From positions 1-63,293 of IMG/VR virus record IMGVR_UViG_3300025875_000021: a DNA stretch of 63,293 nt, one strand, 5' to 3'. Source of the DNA: a virus (Duplodnaviria; Caudoviricetes). Within the stretch, counting starts at the first letter, position 1, and each line of letters begins with the position of its first letter. Both the position numbers and the translations under genes were made by a program. The notes beneath the pieces were generated by a model. It saw nothing but the letters and a program-made list of their open reading frames with translations. It was not told where the DNA came from and made no database searches. Of this stretch, positions 506-63,293 are shown piece by piece.

Positions 506-1210
506 ATGACTGAGCAGTTCCCACCCAACCCCGTAGGGGCTCGAGGCGCCGTCTCTCGTCCTGAGGACAAGCAGCCGAAGCGTCACCCCATGCACGCAAG
601 GGAGGAGGCGGCGGCCACCGCGTCACCCTCGGACAAGAACGTCGAGCAGGTCGTGCACAGCAAGGTCGTCCGTCGCAAGAAGCCCTGGGGCCAGAAGGTC
701 GCCGACATGGTCGACGCAGGTGGAGTCGTGGGCTACATGCTCGGCGACGTGCTCATCCCTACGCTGCGAGCTTCGATCGTTGAGGCGTTCGCTGGTGGTC
801 TCGAGCGAGCGATCTACGGTGGTGACGTTCGTCCTGGCAATCGACTGCCTCTCCGTCCCGGTGGCGGCGTCGGACCGGTGCCCTACCACAACCGGTACCA
901 CTCCAGTGCGCCTGTGCGAGGCAACGCTCCGATCCACGAGCCGCGGCGCCTTGTGCGCAGGCACGAGGAGTGGGAGCAGATCATCGTCGCAACGCAGGCT
1001 GAAGCTCGTGAAGTCGTCGACCGTCTGTGGGATCTCGCCAACCGCTACCCCGCCGCAACCGTCGCCGACTACTACGAGATGCTCGGACAAACGCCGTCGT
1101 TCACCGACGAGCGCCGTGGGTGGACAGTGGACACCCTCCAGTACGCGGACATCAAGCGTGTCCGTGAAGGCTGGCTGATCGTCCTGCCCGATCCTGAGTC
1201 CGTCGTCTAA
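506..1210 (+). CDS. Hypothetical phage protein
   Basis: ATG 506 after gagga; C-terminal TVADYYEMLG..RRGW resembles the C-termini of 1410 and 61784. Confidence 0.8.
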   Translation: MTEQFPPNPVGARGAVSRPEDKQPKRHPMHAREEAAATASPSDKNVEQVVHSKVVRRKKPWGQKVADMVDAGGVVGYMLGDVLIPTLRASIVEAFAGGLERAIYGGDVRPGNRLPLRPGGGVGPVPYHNRYHSSAPVRGNAPIHEPRRLVRRHEEWEQIIVATQAEAREVVDRLWDLANRYPAATVADYYEMLGQTPSFTDERRGWTVDTLQYADIKRVREGWLIVLPDPESVV

Positions 1211-19094: not shown

Positions 19095-19099
19095 CCCCC

Positions 19100-19530
19100 A
19101 AGCACCGACGAGATCCCCGTGGTCGGAAGGGGACAAACAACTCGTCGCGGGTATGACGACCCATATCCGTAGGAGAGTCCCGAGCCTGGCTAAACAGGGA
19201 CCTACACGTGGATGCTAGTACGAGGTCAATTGATGACCGGCGTGTAGTAGGGCCTATAAGTCTCAATCGGCAGAGCGGGCGGACCCGAAAGGTGCGCTGA
19301 GGTCCGGGTTCGAATCCCGGTAGGCCCACGTTATCGTGAAAGCGAAGCTGTGTTACGGATGACCTTGAGGAGAAGCGTATCGCTAAGGCGAGCGTGGATT
19401 AAGGGACTATCAACCGTAGCTAAAACCCAGTCCCACCACCTGCCTTCGGCACCAGAACTCTCGATAGACTGAGAGGGGTGATTAGGGACCGCAAGGGTCA
19501 TGACCCGGATTTGCTGCGGGTCACGCAATA
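19100..19530 (+). ncRNA. Candidate large structured non-coding RNA
   Basis: ~470-nt gap without a credible ORF in a densely packed genome; consecutive helices with GNRA/UUCG loops; embedded tRNA-like fold. Confidence 0.6.
19250..19328 (+). tRNA. tRNA-like element with non-canonical anticodon arm (no assignable isotype)
   Basis: Acceptor GGGCCTA/TAGGCCC+A; T-arm CCGGG-TTCGAAT-CCCGG; D-like CTC-AATCGGCA-GAG; 21-nt anticodon arm; no encoded CCA. Confidence 0.65.
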
Positions 19531-58804: not shown

Positions 58805-59138
58805 GGTGTACGATGCACTGGTGTGGATTGCGCAGATCTTCCTGCCCGCTGTAGGCGCGCTGTACTACGGTCTCGCCGACCTCTGGAATCTGCCTCTGGC
58901 TATTCAGGTCGTCGGAACCATCACCCTGGTAGACCTCTTCTTGGGCACTCTGCTGAAGGTTAGCAAGAGCAACTACAACAAGGCAGAGGCTTGGGCGGAC
59001 GGGAAGATGATCGTCCATCATGAGGACGGCGTTCCCGTCGGCATCAATGCGGATCTGGAGAACATCCGGAGCCCTCTCGGTATTTCTGATCAGGATCGAG
59101 TGACATTCAAGGTTGTGCACAACGATCTTGAGGTGTAA
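58761..59138 (+). CDS. Holin (Dp-1-like)
   Basis: RBS aaggag; VYDAL.WIAQI.LPA.GALY..LA..W.LP..VVGTI..VD.FLG.LL..S..Y. Confidence 0.8.
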   Translation: MTTNTTATSPFLPSRVYDALVWIAQIFLPAVGALYYGLADLWNLPLAIQVVGTITLVDLFLGTLLKVSKSNYNKAEAWADGKMIVHHEDGVPVGINADLENIRSPLGISDQDRVTFKVVHNDLEV

Positions 59139-59142
59139 CACC

Positions 59143-59175
59143 TCGCGAAGGATACACGGGCTATAATGAGACCCC
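59143..59175 (+). promoter_or_regulatory. Conserved phage promoter-like motif
   Basis: TCGCGAaggatacacgggcTATAATgagacccc. Confidence 0.85.
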
Positions 59176-59195
59176 TAACCCTTGAGGAGAACGCC

Positions 59196-59489
59196 ATGTT
59201 CAAGCACAAGACCCACACCGAGACCCCTCGTGTCGAGACGGTCATCGACCTCCTGCTCTACAAGATGGAGACCCACACAGACCCCAGCTCCGCTGAGTAC
59301 GCCAAGATGGTGGACCAGTACGTCAAGCTCCAGGGCGCGAAGGTGCACACCGCACACAAGCCCCTGGACCGCAACGCACTGCTCGCCATCGCCGGCAACC
59401 TCATCGGCATCGGGATCATCGTGGGTCACGAACGAGCACACGTCGTGACCTCCAAGGCACTCGGTTTCATCGGTAAGGTCACCACCTGA
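59196..59489 (+). CDS. Cassette protein
   Basis: RBS gaggag; GNLIGIGIIVGHERAHVVTSKALGF. Confidence 0.8.
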   Translation: MFKHKTHTETPRVETVIDLLLYKMETHTDPSSAEYAKMVDQYVKLQGAKVHTAHKPLDRNALLAIAGNLIGIGIIVGHERAHVVTSKALGFIGKVTT

Positions 59490-59519
59490 TCCGCACAACC
59501 TCCAGCTAGGACCACCAAG

Positions 59520-59568
59520 CGCAGAGGGCGTGTACGAGAGATATTCCAACTCGTACACGCCCTCTGCG
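59520..59568. terminator. Perfect 19-bp inverted repeat
   Basis: cgcagagggcgtgtacgag / ctcgtacacgccctctgcg followed by ttt. Confidence 0.75.
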
Positions 59569-59598
59569 TTTGTCCTACATGGGCTATCAATTTTTGCC

Positions 59599-59632
59599 TC
59601 GCGAGAAGTACAAGGCCTCTAATGAGAACCCC
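59599..59632 (+). promoter_or_regulatory. Conserved phage promoter-like motif
   Basis: TCGCGAgaagtacaaggccTCTAATgagaacccc. Confidence 0.85.
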
Positions 59633-59654
59633 ACCCTCTATTGAAGGAGTCCCC

Positions 59655-59921
59655 ATGAAGAAGATCATCGCAGCCGCAGCGGTCACTGGCTTCGTCATCT
59701 GGGCCGTCCCAGCCGCCGTTGCTGGCTTCGTGGACGGACTCTCAGAGCAGCTTGCTCCCCGCTTCCCGGACGTCGACCTCGACACCATCCGGATCGTGTA
59801 CCGCAAGTTCCTCTGGAAGTCCTTCACGGGCCAGCTGCCCGACCTGGACGACCTGGACGACGACGCCATGGACACGCTGTTCCGCGTCGAACTCTTCAAC
59901 TACCTCGCCAACAAGAAGTAA
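59655..59921 (+). CDS. Cassette protein, N-terminal hydrophobic
   Basis: RBS aaggag. Confidence 0.8.
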   Translation: MKKIIAAAAVTGFVIWAVPAAVAGFVDGLSEQLAPRFPDVDLDTIRIVYRKFLWKSFTGQLPDLDDLDDDAMDTLFRVELFNYLANKK

Positions 59922-59928
59922 GTTCCAG

Positions 59929-59957
59929 CACTCAGAGCCCCACAAGGGCTCTAAGTG
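59929..59957 (+). terminator. Cassette-end hairpin (CCACAA-type loop)
   Basis: cactcagagccc-cacaa-gggctctaagtg. Confidence 0.7.
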
Positions 59958-59963
59958 TCACTC

Positions 59964-59996
59964 TCGCGTGATATTCATGGCCTCTAATGAGAACCC
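59964..59996 (+). promoter_or_regulatory. Conserved phage promoter-like motif
   Basis: TCGCGTgatattcatggccTCTAATgagaaccc. Confidence 0.85.
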
Positions 59997-60013
59997 AACA
60001 TCGAGGAGTAGCT

Positions 60014-60247
60014 ATGAAGCTGTTTCAGAACAAGGCACTCTCGCTGACTGTCACCAACAACCCCCAGCCCCCCACCGACTCTTCTGAGCCGGCAACGTCC
60101 AAACGCGTGGATGCAGACGCGATCGCCCAGATCGCCATGTACCACGCGAACCACGCTGCCGCGCTCATATCTGCGGTGTACGTGGGCCGGAAGGTCGTCA
60201 ACACTGCCTGCGAGATCGCCATCATCGCCGCCAACAAGCGCCTCTAG
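60014..60247 (+). CDS. Cassette protein
   Basis: RBS gaggag. Confidence 0.8.
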   Translation: MKLFQNKALSLTVTNNPQPPTDSSEPATSKRVDADAIAQIAMYHANHAAALISAVYVGRKVVNTACEIAIIAANKRL

Positions 60248-60256
60248 TAGTTCCAC

Positions 60257-60285
60257 GACCGAGAGCCCCACAAGGGCTCTTAGTC
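60257..60285 (+). terminator. Cassette-end hairpin (CCACAA-type loop)
   Basis: gaccgagagccc-cacaa-gggctcttagtc. Confidence 0.7.
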
Positions 60286-60286
60286 T

Positions 60287-60320
60287 TCGCGATATATTCA
60301 TGGCCTATAATGAGAACCCC
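60287..60320 (+). promoter_or_regulatory. Conserved phage promoter-like motif
   Basis: TCGCGAtatattcatggccTATAATgagaacccc. Confidence 0.85.
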
Positions 60321-60343
60321 ACCCAGAATTCAAGGAGATCCCC

Positions 60344-60580
60344 ATGAACAGCAGCCTCAAGACTGAGATCGTTGCCATGGCCATCCGCCAGCTTTCGCCC
60401 ACCTCCAAGACCCACAACTCCAGCGCCTCGTTCGACTCGTTCTTCTCCGTCCTCGTGACGGGCAAGACCGTCGAGCAGGCGCAGGCCGAGCAGATCGTCG
60501 AGGTGATCGAGAACGGCGTGAAGGCCGTGAAGACCCTCATCACTCGCCGCCACTTCAACAAGATCGTCAAGAACATCTGA
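60344..60580 (+). CDS. Cassette protein
   Basis: RBS aaggag. Confidence 0.8.
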   Translation: MNSSLKTEIVAMAIRQLSPTSKTHNSSASFDSFFSVLVTGKTVEQAQAEQIVEVIENGVKAVKTLITRRHFNKIVKNI

Positions 60581-60590
60581 CCCATCTCAC

Positions 60591-60622
60591 AGACTCAGAG
60601 ACCCCACAAGGTCTCTCAGTCT
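60591..60622 (+). terminator. Cassette-end hairpin (CCACAA loop)
   Basis: Identical to 17060-17091. Confidence 0.75.
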
Positions 60623-60628
60623 AAGCGT

Positions 60629-60660
60629 TCGCGAAAAATTCATGGTCTCTAATGAGAACC
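60629..60660 (+). promoter_or_regulatory. Conserved phage promoter-like motif
   Basis: TCGCGAaaaattcatggtcTCTAATgagaacc. Confidence 0.85.
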
Positions 60661-60685
60661 ATCAACCCTCTATGAAGGAGACCCC

Positions 60686-60880
60686 ATGAACACTGCCGTC
60701 GTCAAGACCGCTGCTGTCACCGTCAAGAACTTCGCCACCGCACACCCCACCGCCACCGCAGCAGCCGCCAACGCCGCTTCCGCTGTCGCCGGGTACACCG
60801 CGGCCGGCATCGTCCTGAAGGTCCAGCGCCGTCGCGCCGTCAAGAACGTCATGAAGTCCGCCACCTCGCAGAAGATCTAG
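60686..60880 (+). CDS. Ala-rich cassette protein
   Basis: RBS aaggag. Confidence 0.8.
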   Translation: MNTAVVKTAAVTVKNFATAHPTATAAAANAASAVAGYTAAGIVLKVQRRRAVKNVMKSATSQKI

Positions 60881-60885
60881 TTCCG

Positions 60886-60924
60886 AGCTGAGAGCCCCCG
60901 TCACCAAGACATGGGCTTTCAGTT
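60886..60924 (+). terminator. Cassette-end hairpin
   Basis: agctgagagccc...gggctttcagtt. Confidence 0.6.
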
Positions 60925-60930
60925 TGTCTC

Positions 60931-60964
60931 TCGCGACATATTCATGGCCTCTAATGAGAACCCC
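60931..60964 (+). promoter_or_regulatory. Conserved phage promoter-like motif
   Basis: TCGCGAcatattcatggccTCTAATgagaacccc. Confidence 0.85.
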
Positions 60965-60981
60965 AACCTGAGGAGTACCCC

Positions 60982-61161
60982 ATGAACAACCGCCCCGTCA
61001 CCATCGAGGACGTCAAGGCCATGGACGCCCAGGACCTCACCGCGCTCCAGCGTCAGGCGGCTCGCAACCTCGTCAACTTCGTGTTGATCAAGGTCGCGAT
61101 CGCCGTGACGTGCAGGTACGCGGTCAAGGCCCTAGTCCGACACCTGGACAGCCTCGACTAG
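60982..61161 (+). CDS. 59-aa cassette protein (not in ORF track)
   Basis: RBS gaggag; MNNRPVTIEDVKAMDAQDL...HLDSLD. Confidence 0.75.
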   Translation: MNNRPVTIEDVKAMDAQDLTALQRQAARNLVNFVLIKVAIAVTCRYAVKALVRHLDSLD

Positions 61162-61199
61162 TTCGAGCCGTTCGCTCATATCCCAGCTACCGTTCCAAG

Positions 61200-61223
61200 C
61201 TAAACACCGAACTTGGTGTTTAG
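61200..61223 (+). terminator. Cassette-end hairpin
   Basis: ctaaacacc-gaactt-ggtgtttag. Confidence 0.65.
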
Positions 61224-61231
61224 TCTTTGCC

Positions 61232-61261
61232 TCGCGAATTTTTCATGGCCTGTAATGAGAA
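61232..61261 (+). promoter_or_regulatory. Conserved phage promoter-like motif with no gene directly downstream
   Basis: TCGCGAatttttcatggccTGTAATgagaa. Confidence 0.8.
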
Positions 61262-61387
61262 GAGATCCGCAATGGATTCCGAGACACGACTGAGCAGGTG
61301 AAAACCCTGCCCGGAGTGCCAGTCACAAAAGATAAGACTGGTTAACGAATTGTTATCATTGGACAATTACCTCTTCTCTTGTTTTTT
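61257..61387 (+). ncRNA. Candidate small multibranched RNA
   Basis: 5' gagaagag pairs with 3' ctcttctc; four internal hairpins; T-tract; no RBS or ORF. Confidence 0.6.
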
Positions 61388-61441
61388 CTGAGACACCTAC
61401 CTGGTGTCTAAGCTTTGCCCATATCCCGAGAGGAAGTCGCC

Positions 61442-61621
61442 ATGTACGTCTTCAGAACGCGCAACAAGCCGACCCACATCATCGTCGCAGGAGAGCGCTT
61501 CATGGTCAAGCCGCGCTACAAGCTCACCACGTTCATCCTCGACCTCATCCTCGCCTGTGTCACGGGTGGTCTGTGGTTGCTGTGGCCGCTGTTCAAGTTC
61601 CTCCGGAACGGGCGCCGCTGA
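61442..61621 (+). CDS. Small membrane protein
   Basis: RBS gagg; FILDLILACVTGGLWLLW. Confidence 0.75.
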   Translation: MYVFRTRNKPTHIIVAGERFMVKPRYKLTTFILDLILACVTGGLWLLWPLFKFLRNGRR

Positions 61622-61622
61622 C

Positions 61623-61787
61623 ATGCTCGAGTTCCTGATGGGTGTCGCCGGTACAGGCCTTGCAATCCTGATCGTCGTTTCCCTGGCCGCTTTCCTGTGG
61701 GGGATGGGTAGCTTGATCAGCTACCTGATCCGCCAGTCCAACGCCAACCCGGCCTTCGCGGCCCAGCTGAAGAGGAGCAACCTGTGA
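61623..61787 (+). CDS. Small membrane protein
   Basis: MLEFLMGVAG.. hydrophobic. Confidence 0.6.
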   Translation: MLEFLMGVAGTGLAILIVVSLAAFLWGMGSLISYLIRQSNANPAFAAQLKRSNL

Positions 61788-62569
61788 GAAGTCTCACCGA
61801 GATCGTCAAGGTCACCGAGAAGCTGGCGATCGACAACTCGCCGGCGCTCCTGACGGCAGTCGGAGTCGTGGGTACCATTTCCACGGCGGTCTTTGCTGCA
61901 CGAGGAGCATTGCGATACGACGAGGCGGTGAACATCGAAATCGAGTACCGTCGGCAAAACGACCCCTCGTTTGTGAGCGTCCTCGATCCGCGCACTCGAG
62001 TCATGCTCATGGGTCATCACTTCGGCCCCGCGATCATCGTCGGCAGCCTCACCGTCACCGCGATCATCGGAGCCAACCGGATCGGTACTCGTCGGGCAGC
62101 TGCTATGGCTGCGGCGTACACCATCGCGCAGGAGGGCTTCGACGAGTACAAGTACAAGGTGCGTGAGAAGATCGGCGAGAACAAGGAGCGTGCGCTGCGT
62201 GACGACATCGCACAGGATCGCGTGAATCGTAACCCGGCCGGTGAGAGCAACGTCATCATTGTCGGCTCAGGAGATGTTCTCTGCTACGAGATGATGAATG
62301 ATCGCTACTTCCAGAGCTCCGTCGAGGAGATCAAGAAGGCGATGAACGACACGAACTACCAGGTCAACAACGACTCGTACGCATCGCTGTCGGACTTCTA
62401 CGACCGCGTTGGGCTTCCCCACACGTCCGTCTCCGACTCGATCGGGTGGCGGAGCGACGAGAAGCTTCTCGAGATCGAGTTCAGCACGGTGCTGGCTCCG
62501 GATGGTCGACCTTGTGTCGCCTTCGACTTTCGGGTCGATCCCGTTCGCAACTACCACAAGCTCCACTAG
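61784..62569 (+). CDS. Conserved phage protein (DUF6353-like), paralog of 1410
   Basis: NSPALLTAVGVVGTISTAV, AAAMAAAY, YASLSDFYDRVG..IGW. Confidence 0.8.
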   Translation: MRSLTEIVKVTEKLAIDNSPALLTAVGVVGTISTAVFAARGALRYDEAVNIEIEYRRQNDPSFVSVLDPRTRVMLMGHHFGPAIIVGSLTVTAIIGANRIGTRRAAAMAAAYTIAQEGFDEYKYKVREKIGENKERALRDDIAQDRVNRNPAGESNVIIVGSGDVLCYEMMNDRYFQSSVEEIKKAMNDTNYQVNNDSYASLSDFYDRVGLPHTSVSDSIGWRSDEKLLEIEFSTVLAPDGRPCVAFDFRVDPVRNYHKLH

Positions 62570-62626: not shown

Positions 62627-63241
62627 ATGATCAAGATGCCCGTCACCTTCCCCGACCTCGACAACAACACGCGCACGGTGGACTTCTGGTTCCACATGAG
62701 CAAGACCGACATCGCCGACTGGGTCGTCAGTCACAAGATGTCGCTCGAGGACCAGATCCGCGACATCGTCAAGCGCGAGGACAACGAGGCCCTGTTCGCC
62801 CTGTTCCGTGAGCTCATCGAGGTCTCGTACGGTGAGCGCCACGCGAACGGCATCACCTTCAACAAGTCGAAGGAGCTGTCTCGGAACTTCGTGCAGTCCA
62901 ACGCGTACTCCGAGCTGTTCGTCCTGCTCATGAAGGACGAGGCAGTGGCTTCGAAGTTCGTGCGAGGCATCATGCCCAGCGACATCGCTTCGCAGATGCC
63001 GGAGGACCTCCCGTCCCTCGAGGAGATCGCCGACGGCATCAAGACCGAGGGTGTCAAGAGCCTCATCGGAGACGGTGCGTTCGACGGCGACGTCATCATC
63101 ACCGACACGCCGGCGCCCGAGTACCCGGACGACGCGCCGCAGTGGTTCAAGGAGGAGCGACCGCCGACCGAGCAGGAGTTCGCATCGGCATCGCCGGCGT
63201 ACAAGCAGGTCGCGTTCAGCTGGAAGATGCAGGGTAAGTAG
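62627..63241 (+). CDS. Conserved hypothetical protein
   Basis: TF.DLD..DFWFHMSK, SYGER..G..F.K, F.QS.AY..LF..L. Confidence 0.8.
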   Translation: MIKMPVTFPDLDNNTRTVDFWFHMSKTDIADWVVSHKMSLEDQIRDIVKREDNEALFALFRELIEVSYGERHANGITFNKSKELSRNFVQSNAYSELFVLLMKDEAVASKFVRGIMPSDIASQMPEDLPSLEEIADGIKTEGVKSLIGDGAFDGDVIITDTPAPEYPDDAPQWFKEERPPTEQEFASASPAYKQVAFSWKMQGK

Positions 63242-63293
63242 TTCTCGCGAGATATTCATGCCCTATAACGAGAACCCACCACTCTGATCGAAA
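63167..63293. repeat. Terminal overlap copy of 1-127
   Basis: Exact duplicate; includes the promoter motif starting at 63245. Confidence 0.95.

Follow-up and report, generated by a model that had tools for sequence, protein, structure and literature searches.

The window analysed here is the phage record IMGVR_UViG_3300025875_000021 over its full length of 63,293 nucleotides (nt). Judged from their sequence and from that of their relatives, its positions 61257-61387 are a gene whose product is a structured non-coding RNA about 125 nt long. A helix, P1, with a U tract behind it, links the two ends of this predicted RNA; P1 encloses P2 (optional), P3, P4 and P5 (Table 1). The RNA represents a phage-specific structured family that has no earlier description and is unannotated in cultured Gordonia, Rhodococcus and Arthrobacter phages. 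A first-pass annotation had proposed that the cargo of one promoter cassette in the window is a multibranched RNA of about 125 nt and not a protein. Direct reading of the sequence located all the helices that it named, and the proposal as a whole is upheld by covariation in six helices among 58 distinct homologues, which share neither a reading frame nor a coding strand.

Covariation and fold of the RNA

A covariance model, R1, was built on a MAFFT alignment of 12 full-length members. With it, 79 copies (58 distinct) were retrieved from phage and metagenome contigs of 75 sources. In the structure-blind MAFFT alignment of 12 sequences, 95.4% of the cells are paired, versus 83.2% in shuffles. 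Changes on both sides are seen in 24 of 34 pairs, and only 36-48% of the cells are paired when the partners are slid. In the alignment of the 58 distinct sequences, which is fitted to model R1 and therefore leans towards structure, pairing is found in 96.7% of the pair cells and compensatory change in 29 of 33 pairs, values that none of 500 shuffles reached. The covariance-model search and covariation check suggested in the first-pass annotation thus came out in favour of the RNA.

All six helices are backed by compensatory changes. In the 58 distinct sequences, such changes affect 7 of the 8 pairs of P1, 4/4 pairs of P2, 5/5 pairs of P4, where the letters vary freely while the pairing is kept, and 6/6 pairs of the P5 stem. 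The P3 module was followed in a separate alignment (A5) of 30 diverse members, gap-free in 29 of them, with 97.6% of the cells paired. The 4-nt strand of P3a occurs there in 11 versions, so that the TCCG/CGGA pairing put forward earlier holds across the family. P2 is absent from the shorter "type B" members (L233, L235, L236, L239, L245, L247) and from the Gordonia/Rhodococcus forms, and P4 is absent from the form of Arthrobacter phage Tatanka. Hence, the core of the family consists of P1, P3 and P5. An additional helix of 3 bp, GGU/ACC with a change to GGC/GCC, was seen by eye to close P4 and P5 in type B and in the Gordonia/Rhodococcus forms. Its probable counterpart in the window is a pairing of the GU of the conserved GUG behind P3a with AC at 61369-61370.

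The thermodynamic comparison with shuffles, also suggested at first pass, agrees with a folded RNA. Significance was measured against 200 dinucleotide shuffles. For 61257-61390, the minimum free energy (MFE) is -40.2 kcal/mol, compared with -27.8 +/- 3.4 for the shuffles (z -3.62; 0/200 as good), and for 61257-61378 z is -4.37, again with 0/200 as good. A pairing of CAC with GUG and of CUG with CGG, present at P3a in the MFE fold, was rejected since it crosses P3a, and P3a covaries.

A protein product from the RNA locus appears very unlikely from its sequence, and we attach next to no weight to a small protein encoded there on either strand. Frames do exist, namely a minus-strand open reading frame (ORF) at 61220-61366 (48 amino acids, aa) and plus-strand frames of 24-26 aa that start inside the promoter. 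However, from the promoter-motif copy to the ATG at 61442 there is no ribosome-binding site (RBS) and no start codon, as the first-pass annotation had observed of this cassette. In addition, the longest frame switches strand and frame among homologues, substitutions are pairwise-compensatory, and the length differences of hairpin loops among homologues are, by eye, not multiples of three. In the cultured relatives examined, gene calls are on the plus strand without exception.

Table 1 Features of the RNA locus (61202-61621)
Feature	Position	Strand	Remarks
Terminator-like hairpin ending the preceding cassette (AAACACC ... GGTGTTT)	61202-61221	+	Similar hairpins before other motif copies (families D11, D15)
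Promoter-motif copy CTCGCGA-N-TTCATGGCC-TGTAAT	61231-61256	+	Predicted; family D1; full 38-nt copy at 61231-61268
TATAAT-like hexamer TGTAAT	61251-61256	+	Within the promoter-motif copy
P1 5' strand GAGAAGAG	61257-61264	+	Begins at the G right behind the hexamer; pairs with 61371-61378
P2 hairpin ATCC GCAAT GGAT	61265-61277	+	Strands 61265-61268 / 61274-61277; optional
P3 module	61278-61315	+	Most conserved part of the RNA
P3a TCCG/CGGA	61278-61281 with 61312-61315	+	Encloses the 5-bp stem and its loop
P3 inner parts: bulged A; pair G61283-C61311; 10-nt bulge ACACGACTGA	61284-61293 (bulge)	+	
5-bp stem GCAGG / CCTGC with 7-nt loop TGAAAAC	61294-61298 / 61306-61310; loop 61299-61305	+	
Conserved GUG 3' of P3a	61316-61318	+	By eye
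P4 hairpin CCAGTC ... GACTGG	61319-61341	+	Strands 61319-61324 / 61336-61341
Conserved linker TTAACG	61342-61347	+	Consensus of the model alignment: uuaA
P5 hairpin AATTGT TATCATTGG ACAATT	61348-61368	+	Strands 61348-61353 / 61363-61368; conserved UGG at the loop end
P1 3' strand CTCTTCTC	61371-61378	+	Pairs with 61257-61264
U tract TTGTTTTTT directly 3' of P1	61379-61387	+	Presumed 3' end or partial terminator
Second, cassette-end-type hairpin AGACACC TACCT GGTGTCT	61391-61409	+	-11.4 kcal/mol, z -3.5; followed by TTTGCC
RBS GAGGAAG (61430-61436) and gene of a 59-aa small membrane protein (ATG 61442)	61430-61621	+	C-terminal motif GGLWLLW

Distribution of the family in phages

No model of Rfam 15 reached its gathering score in the window. 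At E <= 10, the RNA itself was matched by snoZ182 only (18.5 bits, taken as chance), with no riboswitch, T-box or RNase P match. On 20 other loci, Rfam models gave nothing at the position of the RNA, and the same was true of the gap that holds the RNA cassettes of Tatanka.

Homologues were reached through sequence patterns. A blastn search with 901 nt around the RNA found no match in the phage collection, and a search by the DUF6353 protein for related loci in viral contigs yielded none that was confirmed. A 17-nt hairpin pattern was discarded: its 34 loci were all attributed to chance by blastn of their flanks. Scanning viral contigs for the promoter motif returned two distant relatives. In one of them (G001), protein cassettes only were found, and no RNA. 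The other (G002, contig L041, minus strand, ~1520-1410) has an RNA at the same cassette position, with the same promoter, first letters, P1 and P2. The rest of this RNA differs, as it is shorter and lacks the T arm; it is followed by an extra ORF of 52 aa and then by a gene of the GGLWLIW type. The first true homologues came with a pattern joining the promoter end to the RNA start (70 loci, 6 with the family RNA or a related short RNA). A conserved-core pattern gave 29 loci, 25 true and 4 due to chance. A P2-to-bulge pattern gave at least 117, mostly unrelated repeated phage sequence, with at least three true members, plus L173, which was confirmed separately. A more specific core pattern matched 45 metagenome loci. 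In 185,579 prokaryote species (one genome each) it matched a single locus, located on a 53.6-kb contig of a metagenome-assembled genome. The RNA therefore belongs to phages and not to bacterial chromosomes.

The family is also present in cultured phages. With a Gordonia copy as the query, blastn against deposited phage genomes returned 27 records, corresponding to 23 Gordonia phage records (Deejayvirinae, cluster DJ) and four Rhodococcus equi phage records that represent ReqiPepy6 and ReqiPoco6. None of the 27 records has an annotated feature over the match. For the six records whose annotation was inspected, small genes border the gaps of ~220-360 nt that contain the matches, and a DUF6353 gene follows a few kb further downstream. 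A reduced copy occurs in Arthrobacter phage Tatanka (19.6 bits, E 0.0016 with R1); it scores 32.2 bits with the core model R2, a value that is not independent because Tatanka was part of the R2 training set. Arthrobacter phage Shiba has a diverged copy that was recognized by eye and is scored by neither model. Within 7 kb on either side of DUF6353, R1 found nothing convincing in Shiba and Cheesy (Arthrobacter phages), HotFries and HazuAndZazu (Streptomyces phages) or Burley (a Gordonia phage). Over the same span in these phages and in Tatanka, R2 matched only Tatanka. On the window, R2 gives 60.5 bits at the P3 module, its sole strong match there. The patchy distribution of the RNA resembles that of accessory genes.

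Some genomes carry more than one copy. In two-copy phages, a larger paralogue of ~195 nt lies one cassette upstream of the type B copy (L235 6880-7076; also L271, L291 and L292), and contig L286 has two copies in tandem (1-87 and 112-239).

Literature searches on the RNA, on its phages and on tRNA-like phage RNAs, conducted in full-text papers without their supplements, found the RNA described nowhere; only the promoter motif was found, in the Vardy announcement. A well-supported structured RNA family absent from Rfam 15 is present in cultured SEA-PHAGES phages of Gordonia and Arthrobacter; these are convenient to handle and grow on non-pathogenic hosts, which makes the function of the RNA directly testable.

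Cassette context and transcription of the RNA

The window, a complete phage record, begins and ends with the same 127 bp (1-127 and 63167-63293). IMG/VR classes this repeat as direct terminal repeats; it could alternatively come from an assembly overlap of a circular or permuted genome. The gene content (a large terminase, a prohead protease, a long ORF of tape-measure size, a primase/helicase-type ORF and two DUF6353 membrane proteins) marks a tailed phage of the actinophage kind. The DUF6353 protein encoded at 61784-62569 shows 36-46% identity with proteins of Gordonia, Arthrobacter, Streptomyces and Rhodococcus phages. Together with its paralogue at 1410-2306 (DUF6353 / phrog_2152), it flanks the record junction, and small membrane-protein genes and the RNA lie just upstream of it.

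A 38-nt motif that ends in a TATAAT-like hexamer occurs in 11 copies in the window (family D1). With a 20-nt version of the motif and up to 3 mismatches, 10 matches were found for 0 expected. Seven copies follow one another between 59142 and 61268, each preceded by a short terminator-like hairpin, and behind the six copies from 59142 to 60930 come the RBS and the ATG of a small gene (families D2, D5). The same type of motif precedes the RNA in relatives. A comparable motif is known from Gordonia phage Vardy, where the available text of the announcement describes a 50-bp intergenic motif with a TATAAT -10 sequence (PMC9671010). None of the small neighbouring proteins matched Pfam; against PHROGs, the sole match was 60982-61161 to phrog_15974, of unknown function.

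Given this array, the RNA might be mere punctuation, without a function as an RNA: it could be a complex terminator or insulator, or else a recombination spacer that separates cassettes. Its setting in a terminator-promoter array like that of the PeSL cassettes, as they appear in the portion of PMC2839356 available, fits such a role. However, the ordinary cassette ends of the same genome are simple hairpins of ~20 nt. Besides, ~25 invariant or near-invariant unpaired positions and a loop of T-loop type are kept across three host genera, none of which termination alone needs, and we regard this explanation as highly improbable.

How the RNA relates to the genes behind it bears on whether it is a unit of its own. 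It could act in cis as a leader or attenuator, P1 and the U tract forming a regulated terminator (riboswitch-like, sensing a protein or a tRNA) that sets transcription into genes 61442, 61623 and 61784. Several features fit a leader. The 3' strand of P1 abuts the U tract, so that the formation of P1 could decide termination, and a T run follows P1 in most of the homologues displayed. The RNA is always found among the clustered small membrane-protein genes that precede a DUF6353 gene. In 44 of the 58 distinct rows, the window included, a promoter is not detected ahead of the following ORF, whose usual start is 25-40 nt beyond the U tract. This leader layout counts against a separate RNA gene. 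In the window, a second hairpin follows (61391-61409), with no promoter motif behind it and no conservation in homologues. Gene 61442, which matches neither Pfam nor PHROGs, has no promoter copy of its own; genes 61442, 61623 and 61784 hence depend on read-through from the promoter of the RNA.

Other observations argue against a leader. In the remaining 14 of the 58 distinct rows, a regular-expression test finds the next promoter copy right behind the U tract, and the next gene has its own promoter in L155 and in all the Gordonia DJ copies examined except that of phage Fazel. In Fazel itself, the RNA is co-transcribed behind a tRNA look-alike. The class of the downstream gene is not constant: by eye, it encodes a small GGLWLIW membrane protein in 11 rows, a transmembrane protein of ~150 aa in 15 (three cut short), a DUF6353-like protein in 4, and others elsewhere. 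Relatives of the 61442 protein stand directly downstream of the RNA in 11 of the 58 distinct rows. No riboswitch family matches the RNA, and no conserved anti-terminator pairing was noticed, though without an exhaustive search. Overall, we consider a leader unlikely and conclude from the layout of the locus in relatives that the RNA behaves as a unit of its own; in the window, its terminator presumably also meters the downstream membrane-protein genes. P1 has 8 bp with 3 G-C pairs in front of TTGTTTTTT, and a simple terminator scan makes no call there, the "loop" being the whole RNA (106 nt).

The position of P1 relative to the promoter is unusual. In the window and in many relatives, its 5' strand starts at the G directly behind the hexamer. 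An ordinary -10 box would place the start ~7 nt further, near 61263, with most of P1 lost, which speaks against a start at this G. Without its first six letters, the window RNA stands out far less clearly from shuffles (z -2.2, 5 of the 200 being as good). A scan of 59000-62000 for TTGACA-like -35 boxes returned 0 sites, and no T7-type RNA polymerase domain was found in the window, in a search whose control matched nowhere. In ReqiPepy6, P1 is displaced 22 nt downstream of the hexamer, and the first 16 nt behind the hexamer form a hairpin of their own; in Fazel, P1 is intact with no promoter between the tRNA look-alike and the RNA. These two layouts indicate that P1 can form from non-promoter letters. 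The sequences point to one of two situations: either initiation at these promoters is unusually close to the hexamer, or it is chiefly read-through transcripts that form P1. How P1 fits the promoter raises the question of where these highly conserved phage promoters start transcription. A search for sequencing runs that contain the region returned three DNA runs labelled groundwater metagenome and no RNA run.

A tRNA-like core and its resemblance to known RNAs

Reading inwards, the P3 module starts with P3a (4-5 bp), a bulged A and a G-C pair that is invariant; after a 10-nt bulge confined to the 5' strand come a 5-bp stem and its 7-nt loop. The bulge reads ACACGAAUGC in most members and ACACGACUGA in the window. 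The consensus of T-loops is U, U/G, N, R, A; in the folded motif, positions 1 and 5 form a reverse-Hoogsteen pair and a base intercalates between positions 4 and 5. In the 7-nt loop, U at position 1 and A at position 5 are invariant (30/30), position 4 is by eye a purine (A or G), and the other positions vary; seven members have the canonical transfer RNA (tRNA) form, UUCAAAY. By its letters, the P3 loop therefore carries the T-loop signature. As the 3' strand runs unbroken from the 5-bp stem into P3a, a stack of both helices is possible, comparable to that of the T stem on the acceptor stem in tRNA. We infer that the P3 loop is a T-loop and P3 a mimic of the tRNA half made up of the acceptor and the T arm. 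From the bulge to the T arm, the letters of the ReqiPepy6 RNA align by eye with the variable loop and the T arm of a tRNA-like gene located one cassette upstream.

A second element of the core is a likely tertiary pairing between this bulge and the P5 loop, suggested by their complementary letters. The P5 loop is UUUUCGUUGG in most members, with a conserved GG at its end, and its UUCG complements the CGAA of the bulge. In Gordonia phages, the two segments change together, from CG:CG to CU:AG and UU:AA, and in Pepy6-type sequences an A-to-G change of the bulge is matched by a C in the P5 loop. Counted on the model alignment, four core pairs are kept, with 44-51 cells each, and 2 pairs are compensatory; the covariation score is reached by 1 of 500 shuffles.

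These features led us to a mechanism in which the RNA would act in trans as a stable mimic of tRNA. Transcription would start from the cassette's own predicted promoter, at or very near G61257, and end at the U tract behind P1, with some polymerases reading through into the downstream membrane-protein genes. The bulge CGAA would pair with the UUCG of the P5 loop and so place the conserved GG there close to the T-loop, an arrangement like that of the tRNA elbow. The resulting tRNA look-alike would bind a host or phage factor that recognizes the tRNA elbow or a minihelix, and would occupy or redirect it. Candidate factors are a defence or toxin enzyme that targets tRNAs, an enzyme of processing or modification, and a Ro-type ribonucleoprotein. 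The RNA would act alongside the anticodon-less tRNA look-alikes made from neighbouring cassettes of related phages. That the RNA is such a trans-acting mimic, engaging a factor that recognizes the elbow or a minihelix, is a guess from sequence features to which we give slightly less than an even chance. If true, it would amount to an RNA-level answer to tRNA-targeting immunity or toxin systems.

A series of observations weighs against this proposal. Positions 2 and 3 of the loop are mostly G and A and not the U and C that make elbow contacts. The fifth loop-bulge pair, an outer A-U, fails in 19 of 49 cells; the window copy forms 3 of the five proposed pairs; and the pairing is mostly invariant, hence weakly tested. 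The tRNA model RF00005, whose gathering threshold is 29 bits, does not match 61150-61480 even at E <= 10, and ARAGORN finds nothing on the RNA locus. Finally, P3a has only 4-5 bp, plus one G-C pair, and lacks a free 3' end, which precludes charging or CCA-tailing of the RNA as it stands.

The single-stranded conserved stretches, ACACGAAUGC, UUAACG and UUUUCGUUGG, could instead be the seeds of a small RNA that pairs with host or phage messenger RNAs. The unpaired segments are indeed the best-conserved letters of the family. Yet two of them are mutually complementary and co-vary, which fits an internal tertiary structure better, and the hosts belong to at least three genera, so that one shared messenger RNA target is unlikely. 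We find a base-pairing role improbable.

The trans-acting mimic proposed above draws attention to the neighbouring cassettes. Matches to the tRNA model lie beside the RNA in 4 of the 20 loci scanned, two of them with a loop of 4 or 6 nt replacing the anticodon loop. ReqiPepy6 (L251 3369-3443) and ReqiPoco6 (L252 155-227) have a "tRNA-OTHER" with a 6-nt anticodon loop in the cassette just upstream. In Gordonia phage Fazel (L255 515-581), a match of 42.8 bits, with a 4-nt loop for the anticodon loop, is directly upstream of the RNA, and in Gordonia phage Hydrus (L253 755-821) a similar match is found just downstream. The look-alikes of Fazel and Hydrus were missed by ARAGORN and are not among the annotated features of the stretches fetched. 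In L300, a regular tRNA is located ~420 nt upstream of the RNA.

In Tatanka (L303 6640-6990), an unannotated gap of 390 nt right before the DUF6353 gene holds three promoter-driven RNA cassettes, the first of which has a canonical T arm on an 11-bp stem. Shiba (L304 6680-6930) has two promoter-driven small RNA cassettes in a gap of 360-390 nt before its DUF6353 gene. In contig L083 (~630-1000, plus strand), the same type of promoter precedes two other RNAs, each with three hairpins that share one loop sequence; the recurrent loop hints at several binding sites for one factor. In genomes of the phages described here, RNA genes occupy the 200-400 nt gaps left without annotation, sometimes two or three in a row beside non-decoding tRNA look-alikes.

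The window has a further tRNA-like element at 19250-19329 (plus strand), in an ORF-poor gap (~19095-19500). ARAGORN calls it an 80-nt tRNA-Phe, with only 19.1 bits for the Rfam tRNA model (threshold 29). It combines a canonical T arm and a 7-bp acceptor stem with an odd middle part, and may be another non-decoding tRNA look-alike of this phage.

A broader and rather speculative reading, which we think unlikely to hold in full, would extend these observations to actinophages of the Deejayvirinae, Pepy6 and Gordonvirus kind and to their uncultured relatives from soil and groundwater. Such phages would carry arrays of strongly promoted, non-decoding tRNA mimics, among which the T-loop RNA is the most conserved. 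The arrays would represent a new class of RNA counter-defence that imitates the elbow and minihelix and jams host enzymes that cut, tag or sense tRNAs in the course of infection, with the anticodon-less look-alikes covering the acceptor end.

Compared with tRNA (RF00005), the RNA has a similar 5-bp stem and 7-nt loop with U1, A5 and, by eye, purine 4; the 3' strand of its stem likewise continues into a second helix, and its P5 loop has a GG as the D loop does. In contrast, it lacks a D arm and an anticodon arm in the order of tRNA, as well as a CCA and a free acceptor end; of the cloverleaf it shows a T-arm-like hairpin and an acceptor-like helix only. Below its T stem, the helix has 4-5 bp plus one pair and not 7, and the T-arm-like part sits inside an RNA of five helices that its own ends close.

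T-loop modules also dock on the elbow of tRNA, as in the distal region of T-box stem I, in RNase P and in the ribosomal L1 stalk. With these modules the RNA shares a purine-rich bulge that starts with AGA, directly 5' of a short stem with a T-loop-type loop. The fourth letter of the bulge is however C, and not the purine of the pentanucleotide T-loop motif.

Among phage RNAs, RNA C and RNA D of T4, a myovirus of E. coli, are small stable RNAs of the tRNA cluster processed from the tRNA operon. In general terms, they too are phage-encoded, structured, ~100-140 nt long, of unknown function and linked to tRNA or tRNA-like genes. In contrast, members of the family described here mostly have their own promoter and terminator and reside in siphovirus-type actinophages.

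In layout, the RNA recalls YrlA, a bacterial Y-RNA-like RNA with a tRNA-like domain. In the excerpted description (Chen et al. 2014, PMC4201824), the ends of YrlA pair with each other, a stem-loop may or may not follow, and then come a T-like arm, a stem-loop of variable sequence and another conserved arm. This raises the idea of a YrlA analogue, that is, a Y-RNA-like scaffold docking on the host Ro (Rsr)/PNPase machinery. The same excerpts report a conserved motif, GNCGAAN0-1G, upstream of the T arm of YrlA; in the RNA, CGAAUG occupies the corresponding position. The YrlA-like sequences aligned in that paper include those of Gordonia polyisoprenivorans and Mycobacterium smegmatis (legend of Figure 1), and YrlA-related sequences are reported near Ro60 in 22 bacteriophages, including Ro60-encoding mycobacteriophages. 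However, the YrlA model RF02553 (gathering score 69 bits) has no match at E <= 10 in the window or in the 20 other family-holding loci. According to the excerpts, YrlA is encoded near the Ro60/Rsr gene, on the same strand and within 4 kb in nearly all cases. No TROVE domain (PF05731) was found at E <= 1 across the 63-kb phage genome, in a search whose control was positive in 2 genomes, and hence no Ro gene accompanies the RNA. The first G of the YrlA motif is missing, the conserved letters differ, and the extra helix around the T arm, P3a, does not figure in the description of YrlA as excerpted. The resemblance is one of layout only and not of membership, and a Y-RNA-like scaffold seems a poor prospect.

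As for the array, small non-essential genes of T4-type phages are flanked, in the part of the article available (Arbiol et al. 2010, PMC2839356), by arrays of PeSL (promoter-early stem-loop) cassettes made of terminator stem-loops and strong, nearly identical promoters, a layout comparable to that of the cassettes in the window. In contrast with the PeSLs, which separate genes as punctuation, one cassette of the window has a conserved RNA as its cargo.

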